IMG/VR virus record: IMGVR_UViG_3300036945_000745
Length of the DNA: 29,282 bases
Origin: a virus
Lineage: Duplodnaviria; Heunggongvirae; Uroviricota; Caudoviricetes
Direction: 5' to 3' (one strand)
Positions 2,879 to 29,282 of this stretch are shown in pieces; positions within the stretch are counted from its first letter, which is position 1, and each line of letters opens with the position of its first letter. The position numbers and the translations under genes are program-made. The notes beneath the pieces were generated by a model. That model was not told the origin of the DNA. It ran no database searches and was given only the letters and a program-made list of their open reading frames with translations.

Positions 2879-3742
2879 TTATTTTCCATCACAAATTCCT
2901 CTTTGTTTAAATTCACACCAAGGGCAAAGTTTGGATGGCCTCTTTGGATATTCCACATCGGTTCTATATGAACCATCCGCATTAAATACACTATCTACGA
3001 ATTCGGTAAACCCTCTCCACGCTTTATTCATAGATGGCTTACCACTAGCGGGTATGTGTCTACTAATACGGGGAATATGAAAGTCAGCCGTTTCGGATAC
3101 TTTACGTTTTAGTATAATAAATTCTACTTCAATCATATCCTCCGAAATTTTCAGCATTTCTGCATAGAATTTCTTATACAATAATATTTGTGTGTTTTTT
3201 ATTGGGTCTGATTTCTGATATTTACTCCACCCCTTTGTGGATGTTTTGAAATCGGTAATACGATATTTGCCAGTAGTTTTACTTCTAACAATAAAATCGA
3301 TGAAACCCAAAAATTGTACATTTTCCGCTATCTTAGTATTAATTACTTGCTCAATTGCAACTAATTCATCATCTTTTAACGAAAAGAAATTATTAAAGTT
3401 TTTGGGTTTTTGGAAGTAATCCAATATAAGATACCCATCTTCTAAGAATTCTACTAATTCTTCTTTAGAACATATTGGGTCTTTGCCATCATCGGATTCT
3501 TTGATAAAGAACTCTCTCATCTTTTCTTTAAGAAAAGCCTTCGTATCCATTCCCTTATCAGCTTGTGATTTGGAGATACGAAGGCATCTACTTAAATATT
3601 CCTGCAATGTCTCATGCATTGCTGAACCAAATACAGAATGTATATTGGATGATGATTGTCTTAAATCATCTATGTAGGATAATTTGTATTGTAGTGGGCA
3701 ACTGCTCCACATACTATATTGGGAAAATGATACTCTAGCCAT
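2879..3742 (-). CDS. PD-(D/E)XK Cas4/AddB/RecB-like exonuclease with probable Fe-S cluster
   Basis: SFSQ...CP..Y, FGSAMHE, GFIDFI, ITDFKTS, QILLY and C-terminal CPWCEFKQRGIC (1+3 Cys arrangement). Confidence 0.9.
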   Translation of the reverse strand: MARVSFSQYSMWSSCPLQYKLSYIDDLRQSSSNIHSVFGSAMHETLQEYLSRCLRISKSQADKGMDTKAFLKEKMREFFIKESDDGKDPICSKEELVEFLEDGYLILDYFQKPKNFNNFFSLKDDELVAIEQVINTKIAENVQFLGFIDFIVRSKTTGKYRITDFKTSTKGWSKYQKSDPIKNTQILLYKKFYAEMLKISEDMIEVEFIILKRKVSETADFHIPRISRHIPASGKPSMNKAWRGFTEFVDSVFNADGSYRTDVEYPKRPSKLCPWCEFKQRGICDGK

Positions 3743-3746
3743 ATAA

Positions 3747-3778
3747 CAAATATACGAATTTTATTTGAATAAACCAAA
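3747..3778 (-). promoter_or_regulatory. Bacteroidota-type sigma70 promoter (-33 TTTG, -7 TATATTTG)
   Basis: Minus strand TTTG-gtttattcaaataaaattcg(20 nt)-TATATTTG, followed by 4 nt and the ATG at 3742. Confidence 0.8.
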
Positions 3779-3781
3779 GAA

Positions 3782-4234
3782 TTATATCTTTAATTTAAGT
3801 TTCGTAATTTGTTTTTTCTCTATACCATATATTTCACATATATATTTGATATTTTCTCTACCTTCTCTAGTTGAGTAGAGAATATCTATATATTCCAATG
3901 CTTGCGATTCCGGTACCGAATAATCTTTCTTAACTAATTCTACTAAAAATTCCTCATACTTATCTTCGGATTTACCTTTTGTATATTTTAAATACTGCTT
4001 ACCTTTTGGTAAAACGCTAATATACAATTTGTACATCTCTTTTGGTTGAAGAGTTTGTGTTAGGGGTAATAATGATGCAACTAGCTCAACCCATTCCGGC
4101 TTCATAGATAGGAATCGATTAATCATAAAGTTACTCCACGATTTTAAATCCTCCTCCGATAACTTATCGAAATAGTTTGGGTCTTGTTCCGCCGTAATTG
4201 CATTAAGATGGTCGAATAACTTTTTAGCTGCCAT
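3782..4234 (-). CDS. Clamp loader small subunit (T4 gp62-like)
   Basis: LFDHLNAI...FMINRFLSM...Y.LYISVLPKGKQYLKY pattern; lies next to the gp44-like subunit. Confidence 0.75.
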   Translation of the reverse strand: MAAKKLFDHLNAITAEQDPNYFDKLSEEDLKSWSNFMINRFLSMKPEWVELVASLLPLTQTLQPKEMYKLYISVLPKGKQYLKYTKGKSEDKYEEFLVELVKKDYSVPESQALEYIDILYSTREGRENIKYICEIYGIEKKQITKLKLKI

Positions 4235-4473
4235 TATTTTTCTTCGTTTGTAGTTTTCAATTCATCGGGTAAAAACTCTTGCAATGGTTTACCACAATTT
4301 GTACATAAGAATGCTTCAAATGGCATAATAGTATCTTTATCTCCACCCGTTAATAACTTAGAAGCCTTGCGAAATCTAAATCCTGGCATAAAAATAACAT
4401 TACCACATTCGCAAGCAACATCTCGCGTATCTTTTAAATCAATTTGCGGTTGTTGAAATTGTTCGTTTATCAT
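4234..4473 (-). CDS. Small zinc-ribbon protein
   Basis: CECG and CTNCG Cys pairs; overlaps both neighbours (ATGA and TAATG). Confidence 0.75.
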   Translation of the reverse strand: MINEQFQQPQIDLKDTRDVACECGNVIFMPGFRFRKASKLLTGGDKDTIMPFEAFLCTNCGKPLQEFLPDELKTTNEEK

Positions 4474-6140: not shown

Positions 6141-6854
6141 TTAATTTGAGATTTCTACTAAATAATATTTACATACGAACTCATCAATAATGAATTCAAC
6201 GTGTGCTAACCCATCTGCTGATACATTAAGTTTAGCCGATGTTGCTTCTTTGTTAGCCGTTAAGATTTCTTTAAGATACTTAGCAGAGAATGAAATTGGT
6301 TTAACTTCACCAGCGTAACCTTTTTCACAAGTGAATGTTACTCTATTGGTAGAAATAGTTGAATAACCAATTGCCATTTTTAAATCACCACCTTCGGTGA
6401 ATACAGTGAATGTATCGATATCCGATAATGCACCTTTTGCTTTGATAAACTTATCAATCATAGTAGATGCCATTTCAATACTAATACCGAATTCAGGCAT
6501 TTGCTTCAAATCTGGTACAACGGGAATTACACCCAAATCTGCTAATTGATACGAAGTTTCAGTTTCATCTGAATTCAACTTTAATACAGTTGCTCTATCG
6601 CCAACCATATCAACATTTAAGGATAAGTCGTTATCCAAAATACCTAATAAATTTTTTAACAATGATGTAGTGTAAATACCAACATTGAATGGTTTTGATG
6701 TAAAGCCATTAAAATCCACTTCACCTAACATAGTTTTGTCATCCGAAATGAAACGTACAGATAATTTGTTTCCTTCTGCGTTCCATGCTACTGATTCAAT
6801 AACTCCACCTAGTGAATACTTCTGAATGAATCTTTGTAAATTTTGTTTGTTCAT
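6141..6854 (-). CDS. DNA polymerase sliding clamp (T4 gp45 / PCNA-like)
   Basis: 237 aa with a repeated beta-alpha pattern, GIY....L..LL, YQLAD..VIP, FSAKYLKEIL; sits between PolB and the clamp loader. Confidence 0.8.
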   Translation of the reverse strand: MNKQNLQRFIQKYSLGGVIESVAWNAEGNKLSVRFISDDKTMLGEVDFNGFTSKPFNVGIYTTSLLKNLLGILDNDLSLNVDMVGDRATVLKLNSDETETSYQLADLGVIPVVPDLKQMPEFGISIEMASTMIDKFIKAKGALSDIDTFTVFTEGGDLKMAIGYSTISTNRVTFTCEKGYAGEVKPISFSAKYLKEILTANKEATSAKLNVSADGLAHVEFIIDEFVCKYYLVEISN

Positions 6855-6918: not shown

Positions 6919-9480
6919 TTAAAATGAGAAAAACTTTTTGGCAGTTAATGCTTCGGTTGAAGCCTTTTGCCATTTAAGTGCGGTATAGAAATCATCTACC
7001 TTATTTTCCATATCCGAAACATATAATTTATCTCTATCGATGTATTGTTCTACGAAATCCATAATTTCTTTAGGGTCATTGTAATCTTTAAATGCTACGG
7101 TATCTAATCCCAATGGATTATTTTTAAGATATACCCACTTTACTTTATCTCCATCTCTAATTGGTTCGTGCTTATATGGTGCATTAAAGAATTTCAATAA
7201 TCGATTATAAGTGATTCCAGCTTTAACGTGAGCGGGAGTTCCTTTTTCAAAGGAGGCAATCGATTCACCACCATCTTTTCTCCAACTACCATTATCATAC
7301 TTACTCAACTCTTTGATTGCTCCACCCTTTGCTATTTTATTAACCGGAAGGTTAATCATACTAGCTTTGAATGCCAATAGTTTTGTATCAACGTATTCAT
7401 TACCCTTACCCATTAGAATATCTTTCAACATACCACTCATTTGGTCCTGAAATGCTTTGGGGAATGATGAGCGAACTACATCTAATCCTTTAACATCTAA
7501 CTTATCACACGGAATACCATTCTTTAATACCATCCATTGTGCATATCGTTTCTTTGCTACCCAAAATCCGGCTTTACTGATATATTCTTTCTTAATTTCA
7601 AATCTATGATTTTCTTTTGGAATAAAAAAGAATCTTTCGGCTAACATATCGTAGAATGTATTTAAGAATGTTTGGGTTTCGGTTGCGATATTATCCACCT
7701 CAACTGCCATCCTCTTTTCATCAAATGTTTTATATTCTGGGTATCTATGTTTTACCAATGGTTCTGCCATCATATAGATTGAATCGGTATCAATGTAAAC
7801 ATTATAGTCGTCAGTCGTTCCTAATTCTTTCCAATATTTTCTATTTGCCATTTCTGCCGTTTTCTTAATAACAGTTTGGCCCGTAACCGTAACTGCCTCT
7901 GCATTATCAATATCGTAAAACCGAAAGGCGGGAAGACCAAGAACACCATACATAGAGTTAAGAAGAATCTTTTGAACAAGCTGCCTCTTAGCATAAAAGT
8001 CATATTTTTCCGTATCACCCGCTTCACCATATTTTTTTTCTAATTTTCTAAACTCAACACGCTTTTCAAACCAATCATTTAAAATATCAGCGATAAGACC
8101 TTTCTTATCCTGTGTATATAGAACCCCATTTGCAGCTACACCCAAATTACTATCGGCAATAACTTCTTTCAATTCCTGAGTCGTATATTCGTATGTATCA
8201 CCATCCTTACCCACTAACTTATATGTCGTATCCAATCCTCTAATATTGGCTTCTGCATCCCAATTTTCAATCTTACCAACTTTGGTTTCGGGACTGATAT
8301 TTAAGGTCATAATGATTGATGGATATAGCGATGTTAAGTCCAAATCATAAATCCAATCATACTTACCAACAATTGGTTCTTTTACATATGCTCCAATAAA
8401 CTTCTCTTGGTTATTATCCCTAAGAGCCTGCATTCTTTCCTTTCTATCTTTTGGCTTATTGGTTGCAACTAATCCTTTCTTTTTAAGATACCCCAAACAA
8501 GCTCCTTCTAACCATTTGGATGAGTAGATGTAATCTTCATATGGAACAAATCCAGCGTGACAAACTGCTCTACATAATTCAATAAATTGAAGTTTCTCAT
8601 CCATCGATACAACTAAATCCACATCGACAATGTTGTATTCAATAAATTTTTCTAAATCATTTTCGAATAAATCATCCAAACTTCCTTCGTACTCAATCTT
8701 ACCTCTACCCAACTCTTTGGTAGCAATGTAGTTTAGAGTATAAGATGCTTCTAATGTATATGTGTAAGTTTTATATAGATTGATGTAATCCAAAATAGCT
8801 ACACCGCCAAAACTAAATTTCTCTCTATATGGAGACCAGAATGCTTGTCCAATTGGTGATAATCGTTTAGCGTTGCCCTCACCACATACATTCTTTAGTC
8901 GGTTATACAAATATGGAATATCAAAGAAATCGATGTTCCATCCAGTCAAAATGGTTGGATTGATTTCTTCATAGTAATTAAGGAATGCCTGTAATAGGTT
9001 TCGTTCGTTATCAAATATATGAAGCGTAACCTCTCTACCATCTTTATTGAAGTTTTTAGCTTTGTTTTTTACCTTTCTTTCTTTATCCAATACAAATACA
9101 TCATACAACTTCGTTGCTCCATCGTGAGCCGCAATTGCTGTAATTTCATTCTTTGCATCTTTTGTAGATGGTAGACCTGATATCATTTCTACCTCAATAT
9201 CGAATGTGAGAACTCTATGTCCTTTTGATGGTAAATCATTATCGTATATATCTACTAAAACTCTCGTTGTTTCTGGAACATCTGATTCAAATAAATCTTC
9301 GGCATCTTCCTTTTCCCATTTACCAATTTTGGTTAGTTTATCTCCATACATAGAAAGATACTCACCATGTGCATCTCGTTTGTATGCATACTTTCGATAT
9401 GGGAAAGTTTGATATCCACTTTTATCATCCCATAGATGGATTAAATTCTTCTGTCTTTCGTAATAAATGTTTTGATACAT
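6919..9480 (-). CDS. polB: Family B DNA polymerase (T4 gp43-like) with 3'-5' exonuclease
   Basis: ExoI FDIEV, ExoII GWNIDFFDIPY, ExoIII YNIVD; motif A DLTSLYPS, motif B KILLNSMYG, motif C YIDTDS, plus KKRYA. No intein-sized insertion. Confidence 0.98.
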   Translation of the reverse strand: MYQNIYYERQKNLIHLWDDKSGYQTFPYRKYAYKRDAHGEYLSMYGDKLTKIGKWEKEDAEDLFESDVPETTRVLVDIYDNDLPSKGHRVLTFDIEVEMISGLPSTKDAKNEITAIAAHDGATKLYDVFVLDKERKVKNKAKNFNKDGREVTLHIFDNERNLLQAFLNYYEEINPTILTGWNIDFFDIPYLYNRLKNVCGEGNAKRLSPIGQAFWSPYREKFSFGGVAILDYINLYKTYTYTLEASYTLNYIATKELGRGKIEYEGSLDDLFENDLEKFIEYNIVDVDLVVSMDEKLQFIELCRAVCHAGFVPYEDYIYSSKWLEGACLGYLKKKGLVATNKPKDRKERMQALRDNNQEKFIGAYVKEPIVGKYDWIYDLDLTSLYPSIIMTLNISPETKVGKIENWDAEANIRGLDTTYKLVGKDGDTYEYTTQELKEVIADSNLGVAANGVLYTQDKKGLIADILNDWFEKRVEFRKLEKKYGEAGDTEKYDFYAKRQLVQKILLNSMYGVLGLPAFRFYDIDNAEAVTVTGQTVIKKTAEMANRKYWKELGTTDDYNVYIDTDSIYMMAEPLVKHRYPEYKTFDEKRMAVEVDNIATETQTFLNTFYDMLAERFFFIPKENHRFEIKKEYISKAGFWVAKKRYAQWMVLKNGIPCDKLDVKGLDVVRSSFPKAFQDQMSGMLKDILMGKGNEYVDTKLLAFKASMINLPVNKIAKGGAIKELSKYDNGSWRKDGGESIASFEKGTPAHVKAGITYNRLLKFFNAPYKHEPIRDGDKVKWVYLKNNPLGLDTVAFKDYNDPKEIMDFVEQYIDRDKLYVSDMENKVDDFYTALKWQKASTEALTAKKFFSF

Positions 9481-10592
9481 TAAGCTCTTAGTTTTTCGTT
9501 TAATATTTTAATCATCCTACTATCGTTTTCAGATAGTTCCTTTGCTCTTTCAATTGCCTTTGTTGATAATTCTAATCTATGATTCTTATCATCTAATATC
9601 TTATCAAGCATATCAAACAAATCCTTTTTATATTTAAAGAACAACCCATTCGGGTCTATCTCTTTGTAACAATCTGATTCCTGAAATATCATAGGAGTTC
9701 CATTCATCATACAATCGGTAGCCGCTACACTCCAACCATAATTAGTCTGCCTCATTTGAATTCCAACGGAGCAAGATTGTAGTTTTTTATAGTAATCGTG
9801 CTTAGCTACTTTGGTATTATCAATCCAACTAAATTCAGGCTTACCATCCAATTGAGGCACCCAAACTTTGAAATCTTGCCTACGTCCTCTATACTCTTCC
9901 ATCAACTTAATAAATGATGGATATCCTTTGTATGCAGCTGCTCTATGATTGAATACAATAACTTTTTCTTTTGGTTTAGGCGATTCGATAATTTTTGTAA
10001 CATCTATTCCTAAATTCCACACTACTAATATACTACTTAATTTTTTAATAAACAAATCATTGAACCATAATTTTGCTTCTTCTAAAACTCTATCTTTTTG
10101 TTCTTGCGTATTTAGGAAGCAAGTTTCCATTTGAGATACACCCAAAAGTTCAATCGGCATCCATCTCCATTTGTTTTTTCTATCTTCTGCATTGCAAGAT
10201 TTCATTTCCCACCAATGGCAATATCCAATTACATTGGTTTTGAAATCGTTCTTATATCTGCCAACTTGCGGCCAATCAGGCAAATGAGAATATATTACAT
10301 CATATTCTAATGTTTCCAACAAACGATTCATATCGGGTGGATATGTTCTCATTTTAATCATATCGCCTGAAAATGATAAGATGTGTTGTTTCACATTTAT
10401 CAAATTCAATTTCTTTACAGGCTGTGGTAATATGATGTTCCAAAAGAATTCACCCTCCGATTCCAATGCTTTGATGTGATTGTATATAACATCCACAAAA
10501 GAATCTTTTTCGATATTTCCAGAGTTAGTGATATTTGGTATCACTAACACTTTTCTTGCTTTATTATAATCTATACTTTCCCAAAATGCCAT
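9480..10592 (-). CDS. Atypical GT-B glycosyltransferase, candidate DNA-modifying enzyme
   Basis: YDVIYSHLP, IVFNHR...KG, and QTNYGWSVAATDCMMNGTPMI aligned to the GT4 donor-binding motif. The stop codon overlaps the PolB ATG (TAATG). Confidence 0.8.
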   Translation of the reverse strand: MAFWESIDYNKARKVLVIPNITNSGNIEKDSFVDVIYNHIKALESEGEFFWNIILPQPVKKLNLINVKQHILSFSGDMIKMRTYPPDMNRLLETLEYDVIYSHLPDWPQVGRYKNDFKTNVIGYCHWWEMKSCNAEDRKNKWRWMPIELLGVSQMETCFLNTQEQKDRVLEEAKLWFNDLFIKKLSSILVVWNLGIDVTKIIESPKPKEKVIVFNHRAAAYKGYPSFIKLMEEYRGRRQDFKVWVPQLDGKPEFSWIDNTKVAKHDYYKKLQSCSVGIQMRQTNYGWSVAATDCMMNGTPMIFQESDCYKEIDPNGLFFKYKKDLFDMLDKILDDKNHRLELSTKAIERAKELSENDSRMIKILNEKLRA

Positions 10593-12634
10593 TATTCTCC
10601 AAGTTGTTTAAAATGTTTAATAATCTTTTTAAGATTAATTTCAGCATTCAACAAATCATCTTCTTCTTTATATTTCTTTTTAATCTTAGGTGCGCTTTGT
10701 TGTTCTAATATATAAGAATAATACTTTGATATGGTATTAAATGCTTTTGTTTTTGCTCCATCAGCTGAATTTGTTTCTAATGCTCTGATAGCTCCGGTAG
10801 TTTGATTAGTATTATTAATATGTTCCCAACTAGCGTTTACCGGCTCCGCCTTTTCGTTCCAACCACAATAAACAACCTTACCATTTACTGTATCTTCGTA
10901 CCAACCAAATTCGGTTAACTTTGTAATTTGTTTTAGGGTTGCTATATGTATATCCCTCATCTCATCATTAGTACCAATATATCCCTCATATGCTTCATAT
11001 GATTCTTTGAATGAAGATAACTTTTCAGTTAAAAAATATTCAGCTCTACCAGTATGAGATGTACTATACCCACCTGAATCGGTATCAGTTAATAGTTTTA
11101 AAAACCCATCATCTTTAATAACATATTCGTTCTTTGTTTCACTAACTGTGAAAACTTTATCTCCAAAATATGTTTCCATAAATAATTCTATTGATTTAGA
11201 AACATTATCGGGTGAGTTTTTAATAGTCTTACCATTGCCAGCATATAGTTGTATAAGTGTTACAAAACTATTGTAACCAAACTTGTCAGATATGATACCA
11301 TCTATTTTGGATGGTGCCAATAACTTAACCTCATCTGTTTGTTTAGTTTGAGATTTTAGTTTTTTCAAAACAACTTTCAATCTACTTAGTTTTTTCTTAG
11401 TTAATTTCCAAGCTTCAATAGATGATGCTGTATAAAATTCGTTAGTAAGTTCGTATTTGAAATCAGGAATTTTATCAATACCTTCGTACTTTTCTTTTAA
11501 AAACTCAACATCCTTACCTTCCATCAAATCTGCGAGTTGTTTATACTTATCGAATCGGTCATCGTTTTTAGTAGAGAAATCTCTAGCGTTGAAATAATTA
11601 TATGCAATCACCGGAACTAAACAATATTCAGGAGCTAAATCAATTAAATCTTTAAAATATTTTCTAGCATCAGAATACTCATCATTTTTTAATGCCAACT
11701 TTGCTTCAGCTACAAAAGAAATATTAGTTGATTTCATTATGTGCTGATATAAAAAGTTGATATTAGTCCAAGGATTGTTTCTATTGTTAATTGATTCAAG
11801 CTCACCAGAAATAATATCATGGTTACCAATTCGTATATGTATAGTTTCGTAATTATCTAATAAATCAACAATGCCATCTTTACCAATAATATCACAAATA
11901 TTAAATTCAGATGATGCCGATTCATCTTTGATTGATTCTAAAAATACATCTAATTCTTTTGGATAGCTGGTTTGAAATGTCTTTTTAATTTCGGCAATTA
12001 CATACTCCACATCTTTCTTTTTTAGAGAATCTTTTGCTACATCAATTTTAGCTTTATCAAAACTATCTTTATTAAGATTTGTATGGGTTTGGTTTAAATG
12101 TGATAATAGATTTATAATAGAAAATTCAGTTAAATTTGACCTATCGTAAGCTTCTAATGCTGAAAAATCTCTATCAAGTCTTATGCCAAATGGAAATTGA
12201 TTACCAATTGCTAGATTATATGCTCTAGCTATAGCGTATCTAAAGTTATCCATTATTTTATGGATTTCTTCTTTTCTCATACGTTGTTCATCATACTTTG
12301 TAAAAAACGTATTAGATAACGAATGTTCAATTTCCAAATCATCCAACGCATCCGATTTATAGTGATTTAGTATTGTTCTAAATTGAATCATGCCATCTAT
12401 CTTAATTGCTATGGTGACACGATTCTTTAAACAAAATGTTGTTACTTCTTTTAATTCCTTAATAAGTTCTTTAATAGAAGTTTCATCTATTGGTTCAAAT
12501 GTAAAACTACTCTTTCGTAGATGTTTAAGTACTTTAAATGAAGAAATGAGTTTATCAAACCCGTCTTTATTTGATATATGTACACTTGGTGTATTCTTAG
12601 TTTCTGAAATTAATTGGTTAATTTTCTCGTTCAT
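10592..12634 (-). CDS. 680-aa protein of unknown function with weak DUF262/ParB-like N-terminal and HNH-like C-terminal motifs
   Basis: The long ORF is secure. IKIDGMIQFRTI resembles IDGQQRLTT, LESINNRNNPW resembles F..lN..G.PL, and WEHI...ETNSADGAK resembles an HNH tail. The domain call is tentative. Confidence 0.45.
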   Translation of the reverse strand: MNEKINQLISETKNTPSVHISNKDGFDKLISSFKVLKHLRKSSFTFEPIDETSIKELIKELKEVTTFCLKNRVTIAIKIDGMIQFRTILNHYKSDALDDLEIEHSLSNTFFTKYDEQRMRKEEIHKIMDNFRYAIARAYNLAIGNQFPFGIRLDRDFSALEAYDRSNLTEFSIINLLSHLNQTHTNLNKDSFDKAKIDVAKDSLKKKDVEYVIAEIKKTFQTSYPKELDVFLESIKDESASSEFNICDIIGKDGIVDLLDNYETIHIRIGNHDIISGELESINNRNNPWTNINFLYQHIMKSTNISFVAEAKLALKNDEYSDARKYFKDLIDLAPEYCLVPVIAYNYFNARDFSTKNDDRFDKYKQLADLMEGKDVEFLKEKYEGIDKIPDFKYELTNEFYTASSIEAWKLTKKKLSRLKVVLKKLKSQTKQTDEVKLLAPSKIDGIISDKFGYNSFVTLIQLYAGNGKTIKNSPDNVSKSIELFMETYFGDKVFTVSETKNEYVIKDDGFLKLLTDTDSGGYSTSHTGRAEYFLTEKLSSFKESYEAYEGYIGTNDEMRDIHIATLKQITKLTEFGWYEDTVNGKVVYCGWNEKAEPVNASWEHINNTNQTTGAIRALETNSADGAKTKAFNTISKYYSYILEQQSAPKIKKKYKEEDDLLNAEINLKKIIKHFKQLGE

Positions 12635-12670
12635 CAGTTTAAGGGTTTATATTTTATGATTTGTTATATA

Positions 12671-12702
12671 CAAATATACGAAAAATATCCCAAATTACCA
12701 AA
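12671..12702 (-). promoter_or_regulatory. Bacteroidota-type sigma70 promoter driving the 680-aa/GT/PolB unit
   Basis: Minus strand TTTG-gtaatttgggatatttttcg(20 nt)-TATATTTG. Confidence 0.8.
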
Positions 12703-12718
12703 TAATTAGGGATATTTT
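12681..12718 (-). terminator. Probable intrinsic terminator after the DruA-like gene, overlapping the next promoter
   Basis: Minus strand AAAATATCCC-taattatttggtaattt-GGGATATTTT(T): a perfect 10-bp inverted repeat ending in a T run, about 25 nt after the stop at 12744. Confidence 0.6.
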
Positions 12719-12743
12719 ATATAACAGGTTGATACTCAATGAG

Positions 12744-13970
12744 TTATCTACCAACCTCTTTTAAATATGCTTCTTGCATTTGCTCCCACGTCATACCAAT
12801 TGCATCAACGTAGAATAGTACTTCGGGTTTGATTCTACCCTCATCGTGTAGTTTTGTATATCGTTTGATGGCTTTATCCTTCCACCACTTAGTGGTATAT
12901 TCGTTTCCTTTTGCAAACTTTTCATTAAGAATTAAATCCTTTTCTTCGATTTTTGATTTTAAGAACTCATTACCATTTTGGTATATTGGAGCAAAATATA
13001 CACCTCTTTGAAATCCGTGGTCATAAGCGTTTCCTTTGATTCCTAATTCTTTGAAAATTGCCTGAATAATCTTTTGTTTAATTCCACTTACAGGTCCGTT
13101 CTTTTCGTAACCCATATTAGCACCATTACGTTCTCTTTCATCCATAATATGCGTCTTATACCATTCCGAACGATTTTCTTTAATCCATTGATGCCAAGGA
13201 TTGTAGACCGAATCATCTGGCTTTGTAGAAATCTTACCTTTGGATTCCCCCAATGTTTTGAAATGTGGAATACCATTATATTGTGAATGAATTCCGTAAA
13301 GGGATGTTGTGCCTACTCCAACTAATGGATTATCATATTTAGTTTTCCAATATGCTCTAACTTCGGGTGCAGTTGCTAATGCTGCGATTAACTTACCACC
13401 TAAAAAATTATAACCAAATGGTTGTGTAGATACAATCGTTGTAGCAATAGATGTACAATTTAATTTACCTTTTTCAAACTTATCTTCTTTACTCCAACCA
13501 ATATATTCATCTCTAACACCCAATGATGTAATATCAGAACCTAAACATATTTGCCCTAATATTTTATTACTTACTCTATCCTTAACATATATTTTTACGT
13601 TTCTGCCAGGATTTGCTGAAAATTCCATAGTATGTATTAACTTACGGATTTCAGTCCAACGAGTAGATTCTTTTGGGTCATCTTCAACGATTTCCACATA
13701 AGGGTCTAATTGCTCTATTTCAGAAATAGTCAATTCCTTATTATTAATATCAGCTGGCTTCCACAATGAATCGTAGTATGATTGTAACGCAGGTAATCTC
13801 TTCATATTAGAAACTCTATCAGCATTCCATTCAATCCACTTCTTATATAAAGTTTGTTGCTCTACTGACATTTCTTTAAGATAGTCCAAATTTTCAATGA
13901 ACTTTCTTTTCATCACATCATAATCAAATGTGGTTGTGTTTGTTTCTTCGCCTGTGTTCCAAAATTTCAT
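12744..13970 (-). CDS. DruA/DUF4338-like protein (Mom/GNAT-related fold inferred)
   Basis: NPGRNVKIYVKD...ILGQICLGSD..SLGVRDEYIGW...QPFGYNFLGGKLIAAL...EVR..WK.KY...TTSLYG..SQYN matches the DruA motif string as I recall it. Confidence 0.8.
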   Translation of the reverse strand: MKFWNTGEETNTTTFDYDVMKRKFIENLDYLKEMSVEQQTLYKKWIEWNADRVSNMKRLPALQSYYDSLWKPADINNKELTISEIEQLDPYVEIVEDDPKESTRWTEIRKLIHTMEFSANPGRNVKIYVKDRVSNKILGQICLGSDITSLGVRDEYIGWSKEDKFEKGKLNCTSIATTIVSTQPFGYNFLGGKLIAALATAPEVRAYWKTKYDNPLVGVGTTSLYGIHSQYNGIPHFKTLGESKGKISTKPDDSVYNPWHQWIKENRSEWYKTHIMDERERNGANMGYEKNGPVSGIKQKIIQAIFKELGIKGNAYDHGFQRGVYFAPIYQNGNEFLKSKIEEKDLILNEKFAKGNEYTTKWWKDKAIKRYTKLHDEGRIKPEVLFYVDAIGMTWEQMQEAYLKEVGR

Positions 13971-13974
13971 ATTA

Positions 13975-14006
13975 CAAATATAACTAATTAATTTTAAATT
14001 ACCAAA
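13975..14006 (-). promoter_or_regulatory. Bacteroidota-type sigma70 promoter for the DruA-like gene
   Basis: Minus strand TTTG-gtaatttaaaattaattagt(20 nt)-TATATTTG, followed by 4 nt and the ATG at 13970. The -33 box overlaps the last codons of the upstream mom-like gene. Confidence 0.8.
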
Positions 14007-14802
14007 ATTTGGTATCTATTTCTGATTCAGGTGCAATTGTTTCCCACACTTGAATATCTTTGTTGAAAGCTCGAGTATCTTTTGGATATGGTCTGATTTC
14101 GTGTTTGAACGTTTTCATAATTGCTTTCTTTTCTTTCTTATCAGCCGTAACAATTTGAAGATATCTATGCTTTGGTGGCTCTTCTCTTCTCCAAAATTGC
14201 TTATATCCATCCTTACCAATTTCTCTACGAAGATGTTCTAAATTACCACTACCCCACTTTGTAAACACAGTCCTACTATGAATCCATTTATAAGGGTCAT
14301 TTGATAATGAAATACCATAGTTAGGCATTAAGGCAATATCGGTATTTAATCCTTGATAAATCCAATTAGTTGCCTGATAAATTCCACCTAAATGTTCTTG
14401 TCCATTATCTGCATAAGAAATAAGTGCTTTAATAGCCTTATCGTTTTCTCTAAACCATTTGAATGATTGTCCCATTGCGTATGATTCAATATTAGAGCCA
14501 TATCCATCATCACAATATAAACGAGTCAATTCTAATACATTATCTTTTGTAAGTAAATCTGAAATAGAAGTTGCTGCCCTTGCCCCAACGGGGAATCCAT
14601 AAACTAAACATCCAATTAATTTATTATCTTCACCCAATGCATTAGTTTCATCCATTTTATAAAAAATACCTAAAGCATATCTACAAGCTGTCCAAGCGTG
14701 TGTGTAGTGCTTCTTTACGATGATATCTTTAGCTATATCTTTACTGATTGGTGCGATATATACTTTGGATGTATCACAATAGTTTTTGCCTTCTTCTTTC
14801 AT
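13999..14802 (-). CDS. mom: Mom-family adenine-modification GNAT-like protein (paralog 1)
   Basis: IIVKKHY, LGIF, LIGCLVYG, LELTRL, NIESYAMG, ALISYAD, HLGGIYQATNWIYQG, KHRY: motif order as in phage Mu Mom. Confidence 0.82.
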   Translation of the reverse strand: MKEEGKNYCDTSKVYIAPISKDIAKDIIVKKHYTHAWTACRYALGIFYKMDETNALGEDNKLIGCLVYGFPVGARAATSISDLLTKDNVLELTRLYCDDGYGSNIESYAMGQSFKWFRENDKAIKALISYADNGQEHLGGIYQATNWIYQGLNTDIALMPNYGISLSNDPYKWIHSRTVFTKWGSGNLEHLRREIGKDGYKQFWRREEPPKHRYLQIVTADKKEKKAIMKTFKHEIRPYPKDTRAFNKDIQVWETIAPESEIDTKFW

Positions 14803-14806
14803 AACT

Positions 14807-15562
14807 TTATTTTATTGGCTCTAATTTGAGTATCTCCTCCACAAATTCCACATTTAATTTTGGATATGGTAGGGATGGGTATTTCAATGATTTAAATAAT
14901 TTCTTTTTTTCTTTACCATACAATAGTATATAAACATACCTATGTTTGCGTGGTTCTTTTTTAATCCAAAATGGGGATGTTACCATTGTTTGAATTATCT
15001 TTGGGTCATTCGTTCCATACTTCACATAAGATGTTCTGCTATGATGCCACTCATCAATCTCACTCCATTTAAAAGACCAACTATCATTTGGTCTGATTCG
15101 ATTTCCCTGATATACCCAATTAGTTGCTTGATAAACAGTTCCCAAATGTCCAACTTTTGGGTCTGAATATGATACCAATGCTTTAATGTGTGGTGCGTTT
15201 TCTCTTAACCAATTAAAAGTTTGTCCTACAAACCAACTCTCAATATTACTACCATATCCATCGAATACAAATAAACGGGTTAGTTCTAAAACCTCCGTTC
15301 TATCCAATAGTTCCGAAATAGATGCACCCGAATGTCTACCAACCGGGTCACCATAACACGCTACTCCAATAAGTTTTTCATTTACTCCGCCAAAGAACTT
15401 GTGTTCATCATTAGAAACATAAAACAAACCAATAGCATAGGATACTTTTGTCCATATACCACTATAATGGTTATTAACAATAATATCCTTTGCTATATCT
15501 TTGCTTACTAATCTAATTGAAAGTTTGGATATATCACAATATTCTTTTCCTTCTACTTTCAT
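14807..15562 (-). CDS. mom: Mom-family adenine-modification GNAT-like protein (paralog 2)
   Basis: IIVNNHYS, IGLF, LIGVACYG, LELTRL, NIESWFVG, ALVSYSDP, GHLGTVYQATNWVYQG, KHRY. Confidence 0.82.
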   Translation of the reverse strand: MKVEGKEYCDISKLSIRLVSKDIAKDIIVNNHYSGIWTKVSYAIGLFYVSNDEHKFFGGVNEKLIGVACYGDPVGRHSGASISELLDRTEVLELTRLFVFDGYGSNIESWFVGQTFNWLRENAPHIKALVSYSDPKVGHLGTVYQATNWVYQGNRIRPNDSWSFKWSEIDEWHHSRTSYVKYGTNDPKIIQTMVTSPFWIKKEPRKHRYVYILLYGKEKKKLFKSLKYPSLPYPKLNVEFVEEILKLEPIK

Positions 15563-15566
15563 ATAA

Positions 15567-15725
15567 CTATTTTACCCAATCATTGAATGCTTCTTCGAAG
15601 GCAGATACTCTATCTCTCTTTGGATTTTCTTCCATAAGTTGTTTAGCAGCATCTAATACTTCTCTCCATAATCCATATGAATTGGCTTCTAATAGAATCT
15701 CTTCGATTTGTTCTTCAGCGGTCAT
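15567..15725 (-). CDS. Small acidic hypothetical protein (52 aa, not in ORF track)
   Basis: Manual translation MTAEEQIEEILLEANSYGLWEKVLDAAKQLMEENPKRDRVSAFEEAFNDWVK*; fills the gap exactly and is co-oriented. Confidence 0.7.
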   Translation of the reverse strand: MTAEEQIEEILLEANSYGLWREVLDAAKQLMEENPKRDRVSAFEEAFNDWVK

Positions 15726-15728
15726 AAC

Positions 15729-15962
15729 CTATTGTTGCTTTTCATATGGCCACTTAATCATATGTGTCCACGTTTGGTTTGTAACTATTTTTTTGATGTT
15801 AGCGGGAGATACTCGGTAGTTCCTAGCAATAACATTTATATTCCTGTGACCTACTTTGTATAGTTCTCTGATTTGCATTATCTGCTCTTCAGTCAATTTG
15901 TGCATTGGATGCGCTTCTCCTCTTAACATACGTCTAATATAACACTTTTTTTTAACAATCAC
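15729..15962 (-). CDS. Stand-alone HTH protein resembling the C-terminal DNA-binding domain of HNH homing endonucleases
   Basis: RGEAHPMHKLTEEQIMQIRELY...IARNYRVSPANIKKIVTNQTWTH matches the GE.H..KLT...V..IR...A..fGVS...I..I....W.H pattern; no HNH core. Confidence 0.7.
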   Translation of the reverse strand: MIVKKKCYIRRMLRGEAHPMHKLTEEQIMQIRELYKVGHRNINVIARNYRVSPANIKKIVTNQTWTHMIKWPYEKQQ

Positions 15963-15969
15963 AAATATT

Positions 15970-16233
15970 TTACTTTAAATTTTCATTTAGTGAATTAATA
16001 TATGTTAATTTTGATTGTACTCCGGCGAATCTATCCACCTCTACCCCATTCTTTTCAACTACTACTGTTGGAACTGAACGTACGCCATATTTGGTAGCCT
16101 CATCGTATGCCACATCTACATCATACTCTTCGAATTTTACATTGGAAAATTGACCTTTGATTTCATTCATTACGGGAGCCAATGCTCTACATGGTCCACA
16201 CCATGCTGCACTAAATTTCTTAACTGTTACCAT
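15970..16233 (-). CDS. trxA: Thioredoxin
   Basis: FSAAWCGPC active site, YGVRSVPT cis-Pro motif; likely start MVTVKK at 16233. Confidence 0.95.
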   Translation of the reverse strand: MVTVKKFSAAWCGPCRALAPVMNEIKGQFSNVKFEEYDVDVAYDEATKYGVRSVPTVVVEKNGVEVDRFAGVQSKLTYINSLNENLK

Positions 16234-16945
16234 TTGTTTTATTTTTAAATTCATCATATGCATCCAATAAGGAGTCTACAACCGGATGTCTATGATTTGT
16301 TAATAATGTTTGTGAATCCATATCCTTAATCTTCTTTGCAGCTGATAATAAGAATTTAAATCCACTATCTCCTTTATACTTTAAATCTACTTGCTGTGTA
16401 TCACCACATACAACCATTTTACTTCTTAATCCCAAACGAGATGTAATCATCTCCATTTGGTCATTGGTACAATTCTGAGCTTCATCTACAATAATAAATG
16501 CATCTAAGAAAGTTCTACCTCTCATAAATGCAAGAGGTACAATTTCAACCTGCCCAGTTTCTAAAATCTTATCAATCTTTTCTTTGTTATACAATTGATA
16601 AAAATTGGAATATACGGGTTGCATCCACGGTTCCATCTTTTCTCTTAAGTCACCTGGTAGGAATCCAATCTCTTCTTTACTTACCGTAGGACGAGTGATG
16701 ATAATTTTATTTACAGTCTTTTTGAATAACATATCTAATGCTACTTGGCATGCTAAAAGGGTTTTACCACTTCCCGCTTTACCACTTAGAATGGTTATGG
16801 CGTTATTGAGAATTTTTTCTTTAGCTTCTTTTTGCTCTACATTTAACTGAATTTGGAACTTAATTGGTCCCTTTGGTTTATCAGTTTTTTCTTCTCTAAT
16901 TTTCTCTGTCAATTCTTTGAATTTTGTTGATTGATTTTCAGCCAT
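16220..16945 (-). CDS. phoH: PhoH-family ATPase
   Basis: GKAGSGKT, ITRP, IGFLPGDL.EKMEPW, MRGRT, IVDEAQN, CGDTQQVD. Confidence 0.96.
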   Translation of the reverse strand: MAENQSTKFKELTEKIREEKTDKPKGPIKFQIQLNVEQKEAKEKILNNAITILSGKAGSGKTLLACQVALDMLFKKTVNKIIITRPTVSKEEIGFLPGDLREKMEPWMQPVYSNFYQLYNKEKIDKILETGQVEIVPLAFMRGRTFLDAFIIVDEAQNCTNDQMEMITSRLGLRSKMVVCGDTQQVDLKYKGDSGFKFLLSAAKKIKDMDSQTLLTNHRHPVVDSLLDAYDEFKNKTNGNS

Positions 16946-25118: not shown

Positions 25119-25574
25119 TTATTTTTCAAAATACTTTACATCAATCCCAGCTTCTTTAAACATCTGAATTGAACGTTCTGCCGAATCTTCCCAAACCTTA
25201 TTCCAAGGCTTATTACTTTTGGAAAAAACTACTTTTGATATGCCAGCGTTGATAATACCTCTTGCACAATCGGCACAACTGATATCACAAGTCATATACA
25301 TTGTAGTATCTAAAGTGGATACTCCAATTCTAGCTGCATTATAAATTGCATTTCTTTCGGCGTGTTCAAACCAATAATATTTTTCAGGTCGTTCTTGTCT
25401 TTCTTGCAAATCATCGTTTATACCTCTCGGAAATGAGTTATACCCAGTTGATACAATTTCATTATCTTTACCAACTATTACAACACCTATTTGTGTTTTT
25501 TGGTCTTTGGATTTTAATTTGATTTGCTGAGCTATGTTTATAAAGTATTCATCCCAATTCATTACTTTGCCCAT
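25119..25574 (-). CDS. dCMP deaminase
   Basis: SKD...IG.VIV, STGYNSFPRG, HAERNAI, SCADCARGII zinc motifs. Confidence 0.93.
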   Translation of the reverse strand: MGKVMNWDEYFINIAQQIKLKSKDQKTQIGVVIVGKDNEIVSTGYNSFPRGINDDLQERQERPEKYYWFEHAERNAIYNAARIGVSTLDTTMYMTCDISCADCARGIINAGISKVVFSKSNKPWNKVWEDSAERSIQMFKEAGIDVKYFEK

Positions 25575-25915
25575 TTACCTCGTTGAACAATTTGTGCGAT
25601 TACACCATATACCGATAAATCTTCATAAGTGTCTTGAATTGATTCACCCACTTCATCTGGTTGACCTAATACTACTAATTGTTTTAAACGTTGAACTTTA
25701 TCATTGATTCTAAACCATAATCCAGTCAATGATAACTTAACATCATCTTTAGTTTCCAATGCCGTTCCTACGGAAATGTTTCCAGGTCCATAATTACGTT
25801 GTTTTTTACAAAACGTAACATACATCTCATCTAAAATGTTTTTGAATTCCTCACAAGTTTGAGGATAAGTGTGTTCGCAATATTGAATTGCAGATTCTGC
25901 TTTGATTTCTGACAT
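25562..25915 (-). CDS. DUF1599 / nucleotide-modification-associated domain 1 (Nmad1)-like protein
   Basis: KKQRNYG, RINDKVQRL, ESIQDTYEDLSVYGVI match the DUF1599 pattern K..DYG...R..DK..R...ES..DT..DL.NY. Confidence 0.75.
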   Translation of the reverse strand: MSEIKAESAIQYCEHTYPQTCEEFKNILDEMYVTFCKKQRNYGPGNISVGTALETKDDVKLSLTGLWFRINDKVQRLKQLVVLGQPDEVGESIQDTYEDLSVYGVIAQIVQRGKWAK

Positions 25916-26407: not shown

Positions 26408-28546
26408 TTATCGTCTTTTTTTATCACAAGAAACAATGTGCGATGGATTAACATTATTTGGTGTCATCCATTTTTTGCCACCAATTGTACTAAATTTAAA
26501 ACCTGGATTATATGACCATCCCATACAACATTTTTTAATAATGCCATCCAATTCTTCATTAACAACTACTCCCGTTCTTTCGTTTACTTTACTTCTTTCG
26601 TTTGAAAAGTAATTAAAATCGGTATCATTGTTATTTATTTCTTGTATAGTTGCTCCAGATAGTGTATGTAATTTTAATAATCTTTTATATTCAACTTTTG
26701 ATTTTGCGTCAAATGGACCTACTCCATTTCTCATAGCAGTTTGAAATGCGTTCTCAGCCTGCTTCTCAGCTTGCTCCATAATTCGTTTATAATCATCTTT
26801 AGATATGATATTATTATCTAAAGCCCATTTTATATGATTATTAATTTCCTTTTCTTTGGCGGAAATTTGTGTAGATGATGGTGGGTATGTACCATCTTTA
26901 CTTTTTCCATATACAAATTGATGGGTTGATAATAAACTATTTAATACATTTTTTGTATTTTTGTTTTTATATTCAGTTTGTTCTACTTTTGAATCACTCT
27001 GACCTGCTCCACCTTCTGCAAATTTAACACTCTGACCACCAACTAACACCATAGATGTTTTAATCATCTTAAAATTATCAGCTATCGATTTTGCAACATT
27101 ACCATTTTTAGATAATTTTAAATTTGGCTCTTTAAATGCTATTACATCGGATACCTTAAATGTTTCAGATGATGGTAAAAATGCATGATATCCTCTACCC
27201 AACATTTTTGCAAATACCAATACTTCTAATAAATCGGGTACAGCTGTTCTAAAATCTTTATTAAGAGTCATTGCCCCCAATACATCATCTACTTCTTTTT
27301 CAAAATTTGGATTACTTCCATTTTGATTAAACTTAATACTATTGAATTTATCCAAAATACTCTTTTGTTCTTTTGTAATAGCTCCGTTTCTTTGGAATAG
27401 TTCTGAAAACTTATTTGTATAAAGTTTCTTAACGTTATCAAATGTTTTTACTCTACCTTCCGGTGTAGATGTATCACCAAAGTCAACTACCTCAAATTTA
27501 CCGGCAGTTGTCATCATTTCCAATTGTTTATTATATCTTCTTAATGCTGCTATGGCTGTTTTGGCTTCGATTTGAGCATTTGGTATTCCCAATTTATTGA
27601 GTTCCAATGCTAATTCCTTTTCTTTTGGTATAGAAATTGGTTTATGAACGACTCCTTCTAATGTAATAGAGCCATCCTTTCCCTTATCCGCACTAATTGT
27701 TTTTCTAGCTTTAGTTATTTTGTTTGCTACAACTTCTTTTTTACCTAACGCACCTTCTTGTGCTTTTGTAGATTGTAAACCAAATGATTGTGTAAGTTGT
27801 TTAAGCGCCTCTCTTTTAGTAGCACCAAATTCAACCTTTTTGTGTTTTTTAAACTCACCAGGTGTTACGTTTGCTATATATAATGTAGCTTCACCTTCTT
27901 TATCTTTAAATGCTACAAACTTTTGTAATAAATCTTTTTCTTTCGCATTAACCTTTTGGCCTGATATCATTTTTTCAAATCCACCAACTAAAGTTTTTAT
28001 TCCTATATCTCCTAAACTCTTCTTTAATTCGGATGAAAAATCCTTTTGAATAACCTGTGCTAAAGCGGCTGTTCTTTTAGAAACTTCTTCAGGTTTTAAA
28101 TTTAAATCAGAAGTAGTTGGAGTTGGAGTAGGTTTTACTTTCGGTTCTGATTTTGTTGGAAACACACTTGCTCCCTTTCCTTTACCAAATACATTAGGTT
28201 TTTCCTCATCATCGGCTGTGGCATCTACTGTTGTTAAATCATCTTCACTATATCCACCTTTATCAAGCATATTACTAGCTATTCTAAATGCCTGTGATGA
28301 TTTTTTGTATCTTAGAGCGCTATCTACTTTTACTAAGTTACCCGTTTCTGGGTTTTTAAATGTAGTAGCCAATAGTTTTTCTAAACTTTGCTTAGCTTCT
28401 AATGCCAATTGCTTTGCATTAGGTACACGATTTTCTTCTAAAATGATTATAAGTTCATTTAGATGTTGCTCGTTTGTTAAATCAACTATTCCTTGTGGGA
28501 TTCTGTAACTTAATTCCAATAATATTTCTTCGAAATTTGGAGTCAT
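26408..28546 (-). CDS. Large hypothetical protein (712 aa), modular, with a possible C-terminal restriction-endonuclease-like domain
   Basis: The long ORF is secure. Helical N-terminus, KNPETG..VKV motif, acidic and PT-rich linker, then LLEV...LP...FKVSDVIAF...QSVKF. Function is tentative. Confidence 0.5.
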   Translation of the reverse strand: MTPNFEEILLELSYRIPQGIVDLTNEQHLNELIIILEENRVPNAKQLALEAKQSLEKLLATTFKNPETGNLVKVDSALRYKKSSQAFRIASNMLDKGGYSEDDLTTVDATADDEEKPNVFGKGKGASVFPTKSEPKVKPTPTPTTSDLNLKPEEVSKRTAALAQVIQKDFSSELKKSLGDIGIKTLVGGFEKMISGQKVNAKEKDLLQKFVAFKDKEGEATLYIANVTPGEFKKHKKVEFGATKREALKQLTQSFGLQSTKAQEGALGKKEVVANKITKARKTISADKGKDGSITLEGVVHKPISIPKEKELALELNKLGIPNAQIEAKTAIAALRRYNKQLEMMTTAGKFEVVDFGDTSTPEGRVKTFDNVKKLYTNKFSELFQRNGAITKEQKSILDKFNSIKFNQNGSNPNFEKEVDDVLGAMTLNKDFRTAVPDLLEVLVFAKMLGRGYHAFLPSSETFKVSDVIAFKEPNLKLSKNGNVAKSIADNFKMIKTSMVLVGGQSVKFAEGGAGQSDSKVEQTEYKNKNTKNVLNSLLSTHQFVYGKSKDGTYPPSSTQISAKEKEINNHIKWALDNNIISKDDYKRIMEQAEKQAENAFQTAMRNGVGPFDAKSKVEYKRLLKLHTLSGATIQEINNNDTDFNYFSNERSKVNERTGVVVNEELDGIIKKCCMGWSYNPGFKFSTIGGKKWMTPNNVNPSHIVSCDKKRR

Positions 28547-28598: not shown

Positions 28599-29282
28599 TT
28601 ATTTAATAACCTCTAAATTATCGTAATTAGTTCCCTCATATGATTTAACGGGAAACCCACCTCTTTCCAACGTAGTAGTTAATTCATCTAAAAGGTGTTC
28701 TCTATCTTGCGGATGTACATCAATTAAGAACGCATCGTAGGTATATAGTATCATTTTTGACTTTCTATTCTCACACCACTTCAGTACTTCATCAATCTTA
28801 GTATAATTAATTTCAGTTTCTAACGCCTGAAGTAAATAGTTGAATACCTTTTGTTCGTTCGCCGCTTCGATTCGTTGGAATGGAATTTCCCTCTTATATA
28901 GAGGCGTCGTCAATTTTCCCGAAATTACGAACTTTTGGTAAACCGATTGAATGTATGCATCTACCTTTTGAAAGAATGGAATGGTTTTAGCAAACTCATC
29001 CAATCCCCCATAAAGATATCGGAATGATAAGGCTTTGGATTCTTCGGTCGTAACCCCATAATATTTTGATAGATGTTGGTGTGCCGTTTCCCCTTCCGGA
29101 AATACATACCCAACCATCTTACCAATGATACGGATGTGATAGGACTCGTAATCGAATTGAATCAAAGTACCCCCATCAAACCTACTCACTATATTACCCC
29201 TACTACCATCGGATTTATTCATCGCAGCCCAATTCACATTAAGATGGCGATTACTCGGTCTACCCGTTACCGTATATGGATT
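28599..29282 (-). CDS. polA: Divergent, compact family A DNA polymerase domain; 5' end is off the window
   Basis: The frame is open to the edge: NPYTVTGRPSNRHLNVNWAAMNK (TGR motif), motif A FDYESYHIRI, motif B SKALSFRYLYGG, FNYLLQ, motif C YTYDAFLID. Confidence 0.85.
   Translation of the reverse strand, partial: NPYTVTGRPSNRHLNVNWAAMNKSDGSRGNIVSRFDGGTLIQFDYESYHIRIIGKMVGYVFPEGETAHQHLSKYYGVTTEESKALSFRYLYGGLDEFAKTIPFFQKVDAYIQSVYQKFVISGKLTTPLYKREIPFQRIEAANEQKVFNYLLQALETEINYTKIDEVLKWCENRKSKMILYTYDAFLIDVHPQDREHLLDELTTTLERGGFPVKSYEGTNYDNLEVIK

Follow-up and report, generated by a model that had tools for sequence, protein, structure and literature searches.

Here we examine a 29,282-nucleotide (nt) stretch of phage DNA from IMG/VR record IMGVR_UViG_3300036945_000745, hereafter the window, and within it five genes that directly precede the gene for the family B replicative DNA polymerase (PolB). 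These encode two Mom-like proteins (MomA and MomB), a DruA-like protein, a 680-amino-acid (aa) protein (orf680) and a glycosyltransferase (GT). The source record is a 72 kb IMG/VR fragment, estimated to be ~32% complete, of an uncultured freshwater giant phage. We propose, with a probability of about 0.55, that the five genes form a DNA-marking island, conserved and located in the replication region and made up of a Mom pair, a DruA-like/GT pair and an exchangeable nuclease of the GmrSD family. The island is probably a previously undescribed way of marking phage DNA.

The locus and its genes

The map of open reading frames (ORFs) shows the window to be a single long minus-strand operon for replication and nucleotide metabolism. 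In transcription order, it opens with a PolA-like fragment, a 712-aa protein without assignment, a deoxycytidine monophosphate (dCMP) deaminase, gp32, UvsX, a 5′-3′ exonuclease, DnaB, ribonucleotide reductase (RNR), PhoH and thioredoxin. It continues through a 77-aa ORF, MomA, MomB, the DruA-like gene, orf680, GT and PolB, and closes with a 237-aa ORF (p237), dUTPase, a clamp loader, a PD-(D/E)XK nuclease and two GT4 genes (Table 1).

A preliminary description of this locus had placed the five genes, contiguous and co-oriented, directly upstream of PolB, and the six ORFs, all on the minus strand, agree with it in every coordinate. It had also joined orf680, GT and PolB by TAATG stop/start overlaps behind one promoter. 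Both overlaps, orf680/GT and GT/PolB, are present in the sequence. The promoter fared less well: the 109-nt gap before orf680 does contain a hairpin, a T-run and a TAtaTTTG motif, but a sigma-70 promoter and terminator consensus scan showed no enrichment, with sites no commoner than in shuffled sequence. The same gap is also the right-hand edge of a variable gene slot, described below.

Table 1. Coordinates of the island, its polymerase and its flanking anchors in the window.
Feature	Position	Strand	Length	Assignment
MomA	14807-15562	-	251 aa	PF25680 E 1e-42, 146.6 bits; phrog_1384 'Mom-like DNA modification protein'
MomB	13999-14802	-	267 aa	PF25680 E 1.7e-42, 145.8 bits; phrog_1384
DruA/DUF4338-like	12744-13970	-	408 aa	PF14236 E 1.2e-22, 80.9 bits; PADLOC DruA 5.2e-20
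Intergenic gap	12635-12743	-	109 nt	Terminator-like hairpin and T-run, TAnnTTTG-like motif; sequence reading
orf680	10592-12634	-	680 aa	Predicted divergent GmrSD-family protein (DUF262/ParB-like N-domain, C-terminal HNH-like region); predicted structure
GT	9480-10592	-	370 aa	GT-B/GT4-like glycosyltransferase; predicted structure
PolB	6919-9480	-	853 aa	Family B replicative DNA polymerase, gp43-like; PF00136, PF03104; phrog_262 3e-181
Thioredoxin + 77-aa ORF	15729-16263	-		Anchor directly upstream of the Mom pair; PF00085
77-aa ORF	15729-15962	-	77 aa	Between thioredoxin and MomA
p237	6141-6854	-	237 aa	Follows PolB

Megablast of the region against GenBank phages returned zero matches, and an NCBIfam search gave no name to MomA, MomB, the DruA-like protein, orf680 or GT. 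Among cultured phages, Microcystis phage Mel-JY01 is nearest, with a PolB that is 49% identical. Its genome is syntenic (thioredoxin, two small ORFs, PolB, then clamp loader) but lacks all five genes.

Two diverged Mom paralogs

MomA and MomB both lie far above the PF25680 gathering cut-off of 27.1 bits, and their family profile matches the Mu Mom structure (8bv8) at 1.3e-70. Mu Mom takes glycine from Gly-tRNA(Gly) and uses it to acylate adenine N6 in double-stranded DNA, after which the adduct rearranges to N6-carbamoylmethyl-deoxyadenosine (Silva et al., PMC13219725). Acyl-CoA is not its donor (PMC13219725). The chemistry assumed in the preliminary description, in which Mom is an acyl-CoA enzyme that makes N6-methylcarbamoyladenine, is consequently out of date. 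Its count of three Mom-superfamily acyl-CoA enzymes, which included the DruA-like protein, is not supported in view of this donor. When the DruA-like and Mom family alignments were compared with hhalign, the probability was 0.6%, and no specific relationship between them was detected.

Residues H58, Y59, R111, S124, D149, Y159 and W181 matter for the activity of Mu Mom (PMC13219725), and all are invariant when Mu Mom is aligned with MomA, MomB and their orthologues. Two other positions have changed. R151, essential in Mu Mom, is replaced by K in MomA and by G in MomB, with each variant fixed in its own orthologue set. The Mu D149-E150-R151 loop thus reads D-P-K in MomA and an invariant D-N-G in MomB, a difference that suggests that the paralogs may use different sequence contexts or donors. 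W48, a dimer-interface residue in Mu Mom, is replaced by D in both proteins. Taken at the level of sequence, MomA and MomB are probable aminoacyl-tRNA-dependent modifiers of DNA adenine N6.

MomA and MomB are only ~46% identical, although within the clade each of them is conserved at 74-95%. The duplication is therefore old, and both copies are under selection. MomB is the more conserved paralog. It occurs without MomA in four relatives (L023, L024, L036 and L060; here and below, L and G labels denote relatives' loci and genomes in the comparison), and some relatives, such as L088, have three Mom copies.

The pair resembles Mu Mom in its Pfam family, in most of the activity residues, in the W181-bearing insertion, and in being phage-borne with a presumed anti-restriction function. 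It also differs from Mu Mom. There are two to three diverged tandem paralogs here rather than one gene, R151 and W48 are altered, and no Com-like regulator was seen. Further, the paralogs lie in the early replication and nucleotide-metabolism operon of a lytic T4-like phage, whereas in Mu, Mom lies at the end of a temperate genome.

Mom-like genes also keep related company elsewhere. In GenBank Microbacterium phages (for example Appa, NC_047972), they adjoin or overlap genes annotated as 'ParB-like nuclease domain', so that Mom and a ParB-superfamily gene are paired a second time, independently.

A DruA-like protein of the replisome module

The DruA-like protein is a clear hidden Markov model (HMM) member of PF14236 (gathering cut-off 27 bits). 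It has 227 relatives in IMG/VR and falls within a mostly viral branch of the family. We take its GNAT nature from the literature, in which DUF4338 is described as a GNAT domain (PMC10853773). Searches of PDB sequences with phmmer and profiles gave nothing meaningful for this protein, for orf680 or for GT.

Homologues are found inside the clamp-loader/PolB module of cyanophages and pelagiphages. In T4-like cyanophages, a DruA-like gene lies between gp44 and gp62, and in pelagiphages a few genes separate it from the clamp. No annotated Mom or GT was found within the 10-19 kb around these genes. The DruA-like gene has therefore long been part of the replisome module. Such cyanophage proteins were noted in the Phold preprint, which assigned them no function.

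The window protein shares with the DruA of type I Druantia its HMM membership (PF14236/DUF4338) and the GNAT domain (PMC10853773). In contrast, it stands alone in the phage, without DruB-DruE and hence without the very large DruE helicase; a PADLOC scan of the neighbours found no Druantia genes, and the largest ORF of the window is the 853-aa PolB. It also belongs to a mostly viral subfamily that is found in cyanophage and pelagiphage replisome modules as well.

A glycosyltransferase of the GT-B fold

By sequence, GT falls below the Pfam cut-offs for GT1 and GT4 (21.8 and 19.6 bits), although its orthologue in L093 exceeds one (36.1 versus 26.4). Its predicted structure (predicted local distance difference test, pLDDT, 84.8) has the two-Rossmann GT-B/GT4 fold, as had been anticipated. 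The best Foldseek match is MshA (3c4q, E 1.3e-13, template modelling (TM) score 0.72), at least 500 matches fall at E <= 1e-3, and all of the 50 listed are GT-B glycosyltransferases. After MshA come PglA, BshA, PimA and the glycosyltransferase of phage HY126, which has arabinosylated 5-hydroxy-deoxycytidine (5hodC) DNA. An N-H-R motif is invariant. The position of the EX7E motif reads Y-G-W-S-V-A-A-T-D, in which W, T and D are invariant, and so departs from the canonical form.

The family comprises 856 clusters in a set of 5.8 billion proteins, including Tara samples, and none of its relatives appears in 50,697 GenBank phage records. In this absence from GenBank phages it differs from T4-type glucosylation and from metaviromic clusters that make glycans on 5-hydroxymethylcytosine (5hmC) (10.1101/2023.12.21.572611; PMC13326640). 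Each system has a GT-B enzyme among replication genes, and for the metaviromic enzymes, ParB-like and DNA polymerase neighbours have been reported. The structural neighbours agree too: published phage DNA GT-B enzymes also resemble MshA, PglH or BshA (10.1101/2023.12.21.572611), and for this reason the fold alone cannot name the acceptor.

Two divergent GT orthologues (L023 5704-7032 and L093 4469-5800) have a C-terminal extension of ~70 aa that is absent from the window GT and in which no Pfam domain was found.

Canonical thymidylate synthesis and the acceptor

The preliminary description had seen no priming enzyme. We found none either, even in relatives that are 95-100% complete. In contrast to T4-type and 5hmC-glycan systems, there is no dCMP or deoxyuridine monophosphate (dUMP) hydroxymethylase and no 5-hydroxy-dCMP synthase. 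Both in the 72 kb record and in these near-complete relatives, the sole gene of the thymidylate synthase (TS) family is a canonical one (ThyA; NCBIfam equivalog). It keeps L143, C146, D169 and N177, positions that distinguish TS from the 5-hydroxymethyl- and 5-hydroxy-dCMP synthases (PMC13326640). The 72 kb record likewise yielded no ThyX, TET/JBP or N6/N4 methylase, with the TET/JBP negative being weak since the control genomes were also silent. The canonical TS homologue makes hydroxymethyl- or hydroxy-pyrimidine priming unlikely. Consequently, if GT acts on DNA, it would need an unconventional acceptor.

ThyA itself (G000:C1:45859-47082; L096 16577-17800) has 407 aa and, in comparison with E. 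coli ThyA, several large insertions, which vary among relatives.

A hypervariable slot for GmrSD-like genes

Between the DruA-like gene and GT lies a slot whose content differs among IMG/VR relatives even where the flanking genes are 96-100% identical. In the window, it holds orf680. The preliminary description had called this protein an orphan, yet it has 43 homologue clusters at 34-93% identity. Its guess that the protein is ParB/HNH-like was borne out by structure searches.

In a shape search of the ESM-Atlas with the AlphaFold2 model of orf680 (pLDDT 87.6), the best five rows were all GmrSD_N and/or HNH clusters, with TM scores of 0.52-0.63 by target and 295-383 residues aligned over positions 74-679; the next row scored 0.29. 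An exhaustive PDB search with residues 72-285 gave SspE (Z 5.0) and BrxU (Z 4.7) as its best matches, both weak. Other methods were silent. The protein has no Pfam, PHROG, NCBIfam or PADLOC match, Foldseek against PDB found nothing at E <= 1e-3, hhalign gave no signal between the orf680 family and the GmrSD_N/HNH proteins found in the slot of relatives, and an Atlas search by language-model features returned only chance-level TPR-like rows (<0.8). At the position of the DGQQR motif, orf680 is degenerate (I-D-G-x-I-x-F-x-T), with an invariant Q117-R118 nearby. In its C-terminal beta-beta-alpha region, a plausible candidate for a His-Me finger, H605, N608 and N622 are invariant and E604 is nearly so.

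The model of orf680 thus fits, over residues 74-679, the DUF262 plus HNH architecture of the GmrSD-family type IV enzymes (GmrSD, BrxU 7p9k, SspE 6jiv and DndI), and the N-domains of SspE and BrxU match it. It differs from this family in lacking a Pfam match or profile-profile signal, in its degenerate DGQQR, and in being phage-encoded and translationally coupled to GT and PolB. Sister phages supply a further likeness, in that they hold bona fide GmrSD_N/HNH genes in the same slot. Slot proteins that match GmrSD_N and/or HNH occur in L010, L008, L084 and L110, and the GmrSD_N cut-off is reached in L010 and L110. In L008 and L010, the protein is 494-519 aa long and has matches to both domains. 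Other occupants are proteins of 424-593 aa without assignment.

The slot can also be empty, in which case 4 nt separate the DruA stop from the GT start. Contigs from lake metagenomes connect the two flanks exactly at the edges of orf680, and what lies between them is either 7 nt or 1662 nt of other sequence. In distant relatives, orf680 homologues that are 48-53% identical occupy the same site and overlap the GT start. In L093, the triad of DruA, orf680 and GT adjoins baseplate genes rather than PolB. The presence of a GmrSD-like gene upstream of GT is therefore old, but the occupant of the slot changes rapidly. The absence or replacement of orf680 in near-identical strains, together with its predicted fold, argues that it is an accessory nuclease-like gene and not a step in a pathway. 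Since the nuclease is swapped beside an unchanged GT, a specific complex between orf680 and GT is also unlikely.

We also considered orf680 as a random strain-specific insertion. This was ruled out by the 48-53% identical homologues at the same site in distant relatives.

PolB is itself interrupted in one relative. In L088 (11188-14701), it is in two pieces of 584 aa and 255 aa, split by a 275-aa ORF that is possibly an intein or homing-endonuclease insertion; the same locus also has DruA-like fragments in addition to its third Mom copy.

Conservation and modular organisation

The Mom, DruA-like and GT genes stay around PolB throughout a very large clade and diverge less than PolB does, in accordance with the neighbourhood conservation that the preliminary description had put forward as a check. 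For example, in relatives whose PolB is ~70% identical, MomA is 83%, MomB 87%, DruA 78% and GT 76% identical, and where PolB has fallen to ~60%, MomB remains at 74% and DruA at 68%. A gene set that evolves more slowly than the polymerase therefore serves a core function of these phages.

The order of the genes is less constant. The first arrangement, that of the window, is Trx-Mom-Mom-DruA-[slot]-GT-PolB, where Trx is thioredoxin. The second is PolB-p237-DruA-GT-gp44, with the Mom pair elsewhere, and the third, also present on a 298 kb contig and a Tara scaffold, is Mom-Mom-[slot]-GT-PolB-p237-DruA. In the complete 195 kb genome G001, which has the second arrangement, Trx-MomA-MomB lies ~15 kb from PolB-p237-DruA-GT. 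The order thioredoxin, small ORF, Mom is kept in relatives, including G001, and the DruA-like/GT pair stays near PolB, within ~4 kb, in every arrangement seen. Of 46 loci, 24 have DruA directly before GT and 18 have a slot gene there. At the level of the genome, the Mom, DruA-like and GT genes are retained together, but in two separately anchored units. The idea of five genes acting in sequence is not supported by these observations, given a slot that is empty or refilled in near-identical strains and a Mom pair ~15 kb from DruA-GT in a complete relative.

Other genes appear within and beside the island. In G001 (L104 7423-9294), an AAA ATPase and a protein of the S-adenosylmethionine (SAM) lyase family come after the Mom pair; SAM lyases have a known anti-restriction function. 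In L023, MomB and the DruA-like gene have a DNA N6/N4 methyltransferase between them (3484-4395; PF01555, 3.9e-23), another DNA-modification gene that has landed in the island. Some relatives with the third arrangement have a 534-aa HATPase_c_3 protein (GHKL/MORC-like) between PolB and p237 (L063 5447-7051).

A proposed DNA-marking island

We suggest that the island is built from three separable units rather than from one linear pathway. The first would be the two anciently diverged Mom paralogs, anchored behind thioredoxin and RNR. By analogy with Mu Mom, they would modify adenine N6 post-replicatively in double-stranded DNA, using an amino acid from a charged tRNA. In the second unit, the DruA-like GNAT protein and the GT4-type GT would most probably add a second mark, either to DNA or to a target associated with the replisome; this is the weakest step of the scheme, and one that we infer. 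The third would be the gene for a DUF262 plus HNH nuclease of the GmrSD family, in the hypervariable slot coupled to GT. Its variability is observed directly, and its product would be an exchangeable and dispensable self/non-self nuclease rather than a biosynthetic enzyme, either acting in a type IV-like manner against foreign or differently marked DNA, or representing a mobile HNH element.

Several points weigh against this proposal. With R151 and W48 lost, the Mom paralogs may differ from Mu Mom in donor, product and oligomeric state, or one of them may lack catalytic activity. Only gene position and conservation tie GT and the DruA-like protein to DNA. GT4 enzymes act on a wide range of acceptors, both small molecules and lipids, and next to the window lies a large glycan island. 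Because the DruA-like gene has long resided in the replisome module, its closeness to Mom may in part be syntenic coincidence. The loci of relatives were chosen via DruA similarity, which biases the counts of gene presence. Lastly, the 24 sequencing runs that contain DNA of this region are Illumina-derived contigs, in which a modification signal is unreadable.

Among the alternatives, the one to be taken most seriously, while still unlikely, is that only the Mom paralogs touch DNA. GT would then act on protein, lipid or a small molecule, possibly feeding the neighbouring glycan island, and the DruA-like protein would acylate a protein or metabolite or mimic host DruA. The nuclease would be a free-standing mobile or competition gene, and proximity to PolB would reflect no more than shared early or middle expression. 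This would account well for a GT whose closest structures are the small-molecule and lipid-linked GT4 enzymes MshA, PglA, BshA and PimA, for the two further GT4 genes just downstream, and for the lack of an acceptor hydroxyl in canonical DNA. It also accommodates DruA-like genes in the replisome modules of phages without Mom or GT nearby. HNH genes are common mobile inserts, and the split PolB of L088 fits the same picture. It leaves unexplained, however, why GT in every arrangement has PolB, DruA or a GmrSD-like gene as its neighbour, even in L093 where it is away from PolB, why GT is more conserved than PolB, why its donor motif departs from the canonical EX7E, and why its partner should come from a family (GmrSD/SspE/BrxU) known solely from recognition of modified DNA. 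A bolder version of DNA marking, which we regard as improbable, is a purine-based and tRNA-fed glyco-modification. Here, Mom or the DruA-like protein would add a hydroxyl-bearing, aminoacyl-derived chain to a base, the GT4 enzyme would glycosylate it without any priming by hydroxymethyl- or hydroxy-pyrimidine, and the nuclease would read the presence or absence of the mark.

The preliminary description had gone further, with all five proteins acting in sequence to build one compound base, in which an acyl or aminoacyl group installed by a GNAT is then glycosylated and orf680 is part of the pathway. The genes are indeed contiguous and co-oriented, orf680, GT and PolB are translationally coupled, and Mom, DruA-like and GT genes co-occur clade-wide. 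Without pyrimidine priming, a GNAT-installed side chain would also be the most obvious source of a hydroxyl for a DNA-directed GT. We nevertheless consider this distinctly improbable. Orf680 looks like a nuclease rather than a transferase and is missing or replaced where its flanks are 96-100% identical, the Mom pair and DruA-GT are far apart in a complete relative, cyanophage and pelagiphage DruA-like genes have no Mom or GT nearby, and the known Mom product is an amide without a hydroxyl (PMC13219725). The alternative that we rate lowest, as highly improbable, pairs the slot nuclease with GT in the manner of a restriction-modification system, such that the GT mark shields phage DNA and the nuclease degrades unmarked host or competitor DNA. 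There is a precedent in T4, which protects its hydroxymethylcytosine (hmC) DNA from its own endonucleases. The overlapping stop and start codons seen in most lineages would suit such a pair, as would the nucleotide-salvage genes (RNR, ThyA, dCMP deaminase and dUTPase) that surround the locus. However, the same GT (96-97% identical) is found beside orf680, beside an unrelated-looking 494-aa GmrSD_N/HNH protein, or beside nothing, and therefore a specific lock-and-key pair is unlikely. Moreover, the characterised GmrSD-family enzymes (GmrSD, BrxU and SspE) cut modified DNA, not unmodified DNA.

Significance of the island

This island is carried by large, uncultured phages of aquatic habitats, a clade that is abundant and found worldwide, as the IMG/VR relatives of DruA and the GT clusters, Tara samples among them, attest. 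If the proposed DNA-marking island is correct, it would extend Mom-type chemistry from Mu and two mined homologues, the cases shown so far, to specialised paralogs in tandem, and would provide a handle on the biochemistry of DruA/DUF4338. Should GT act on DNA, this would be a sugar modification that needs no pyrimidine priming. The hypervariable slot represents a natural experiment in which nucleases are exchanged beside a modification gene. The island may be a source of new DNA-modifying enzymes, and a possible explanation for environmental phage DNA that resists restriction.

Neighbouring genes and further observations

A 6959-nt lake metatranscriptome contig (corresponding to window 10336-16263) carries GT, an alternative slot gene, DruA, MomB, MomA and thioredoxin, although transcription is not provable from it. 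The 77-aa ORF, whose position is kept in relatives, has weak PHROG matches to HNH endonuclease and helix-turn-helix (HTH) proteins (E ~1e-4).

At the start of the operon, in the region 25119-25915 of the window (minus strand), the dCMP deaminase gene overlaps a 117-aa ORF whose match to DUF1599, 'nucleotide modification associated domain 1', falls just short of the threshold (23.6 bits; cut-off 25). The 712-aa protein (26408-28546, minus strand) has no Pfam, PHROGs or PADLOC match. The short ORF upstream of it (28599-29282, minus strand) has a weak match to family A polymerases, even though the phage has a full PolB replisome.

On the other side of the island, p237 has only a weak PHROG match, to a family of unknown function. 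It is fast-evolving, with 45% identity where PolB has 60%, and it follows PolB in every arrangement seen.

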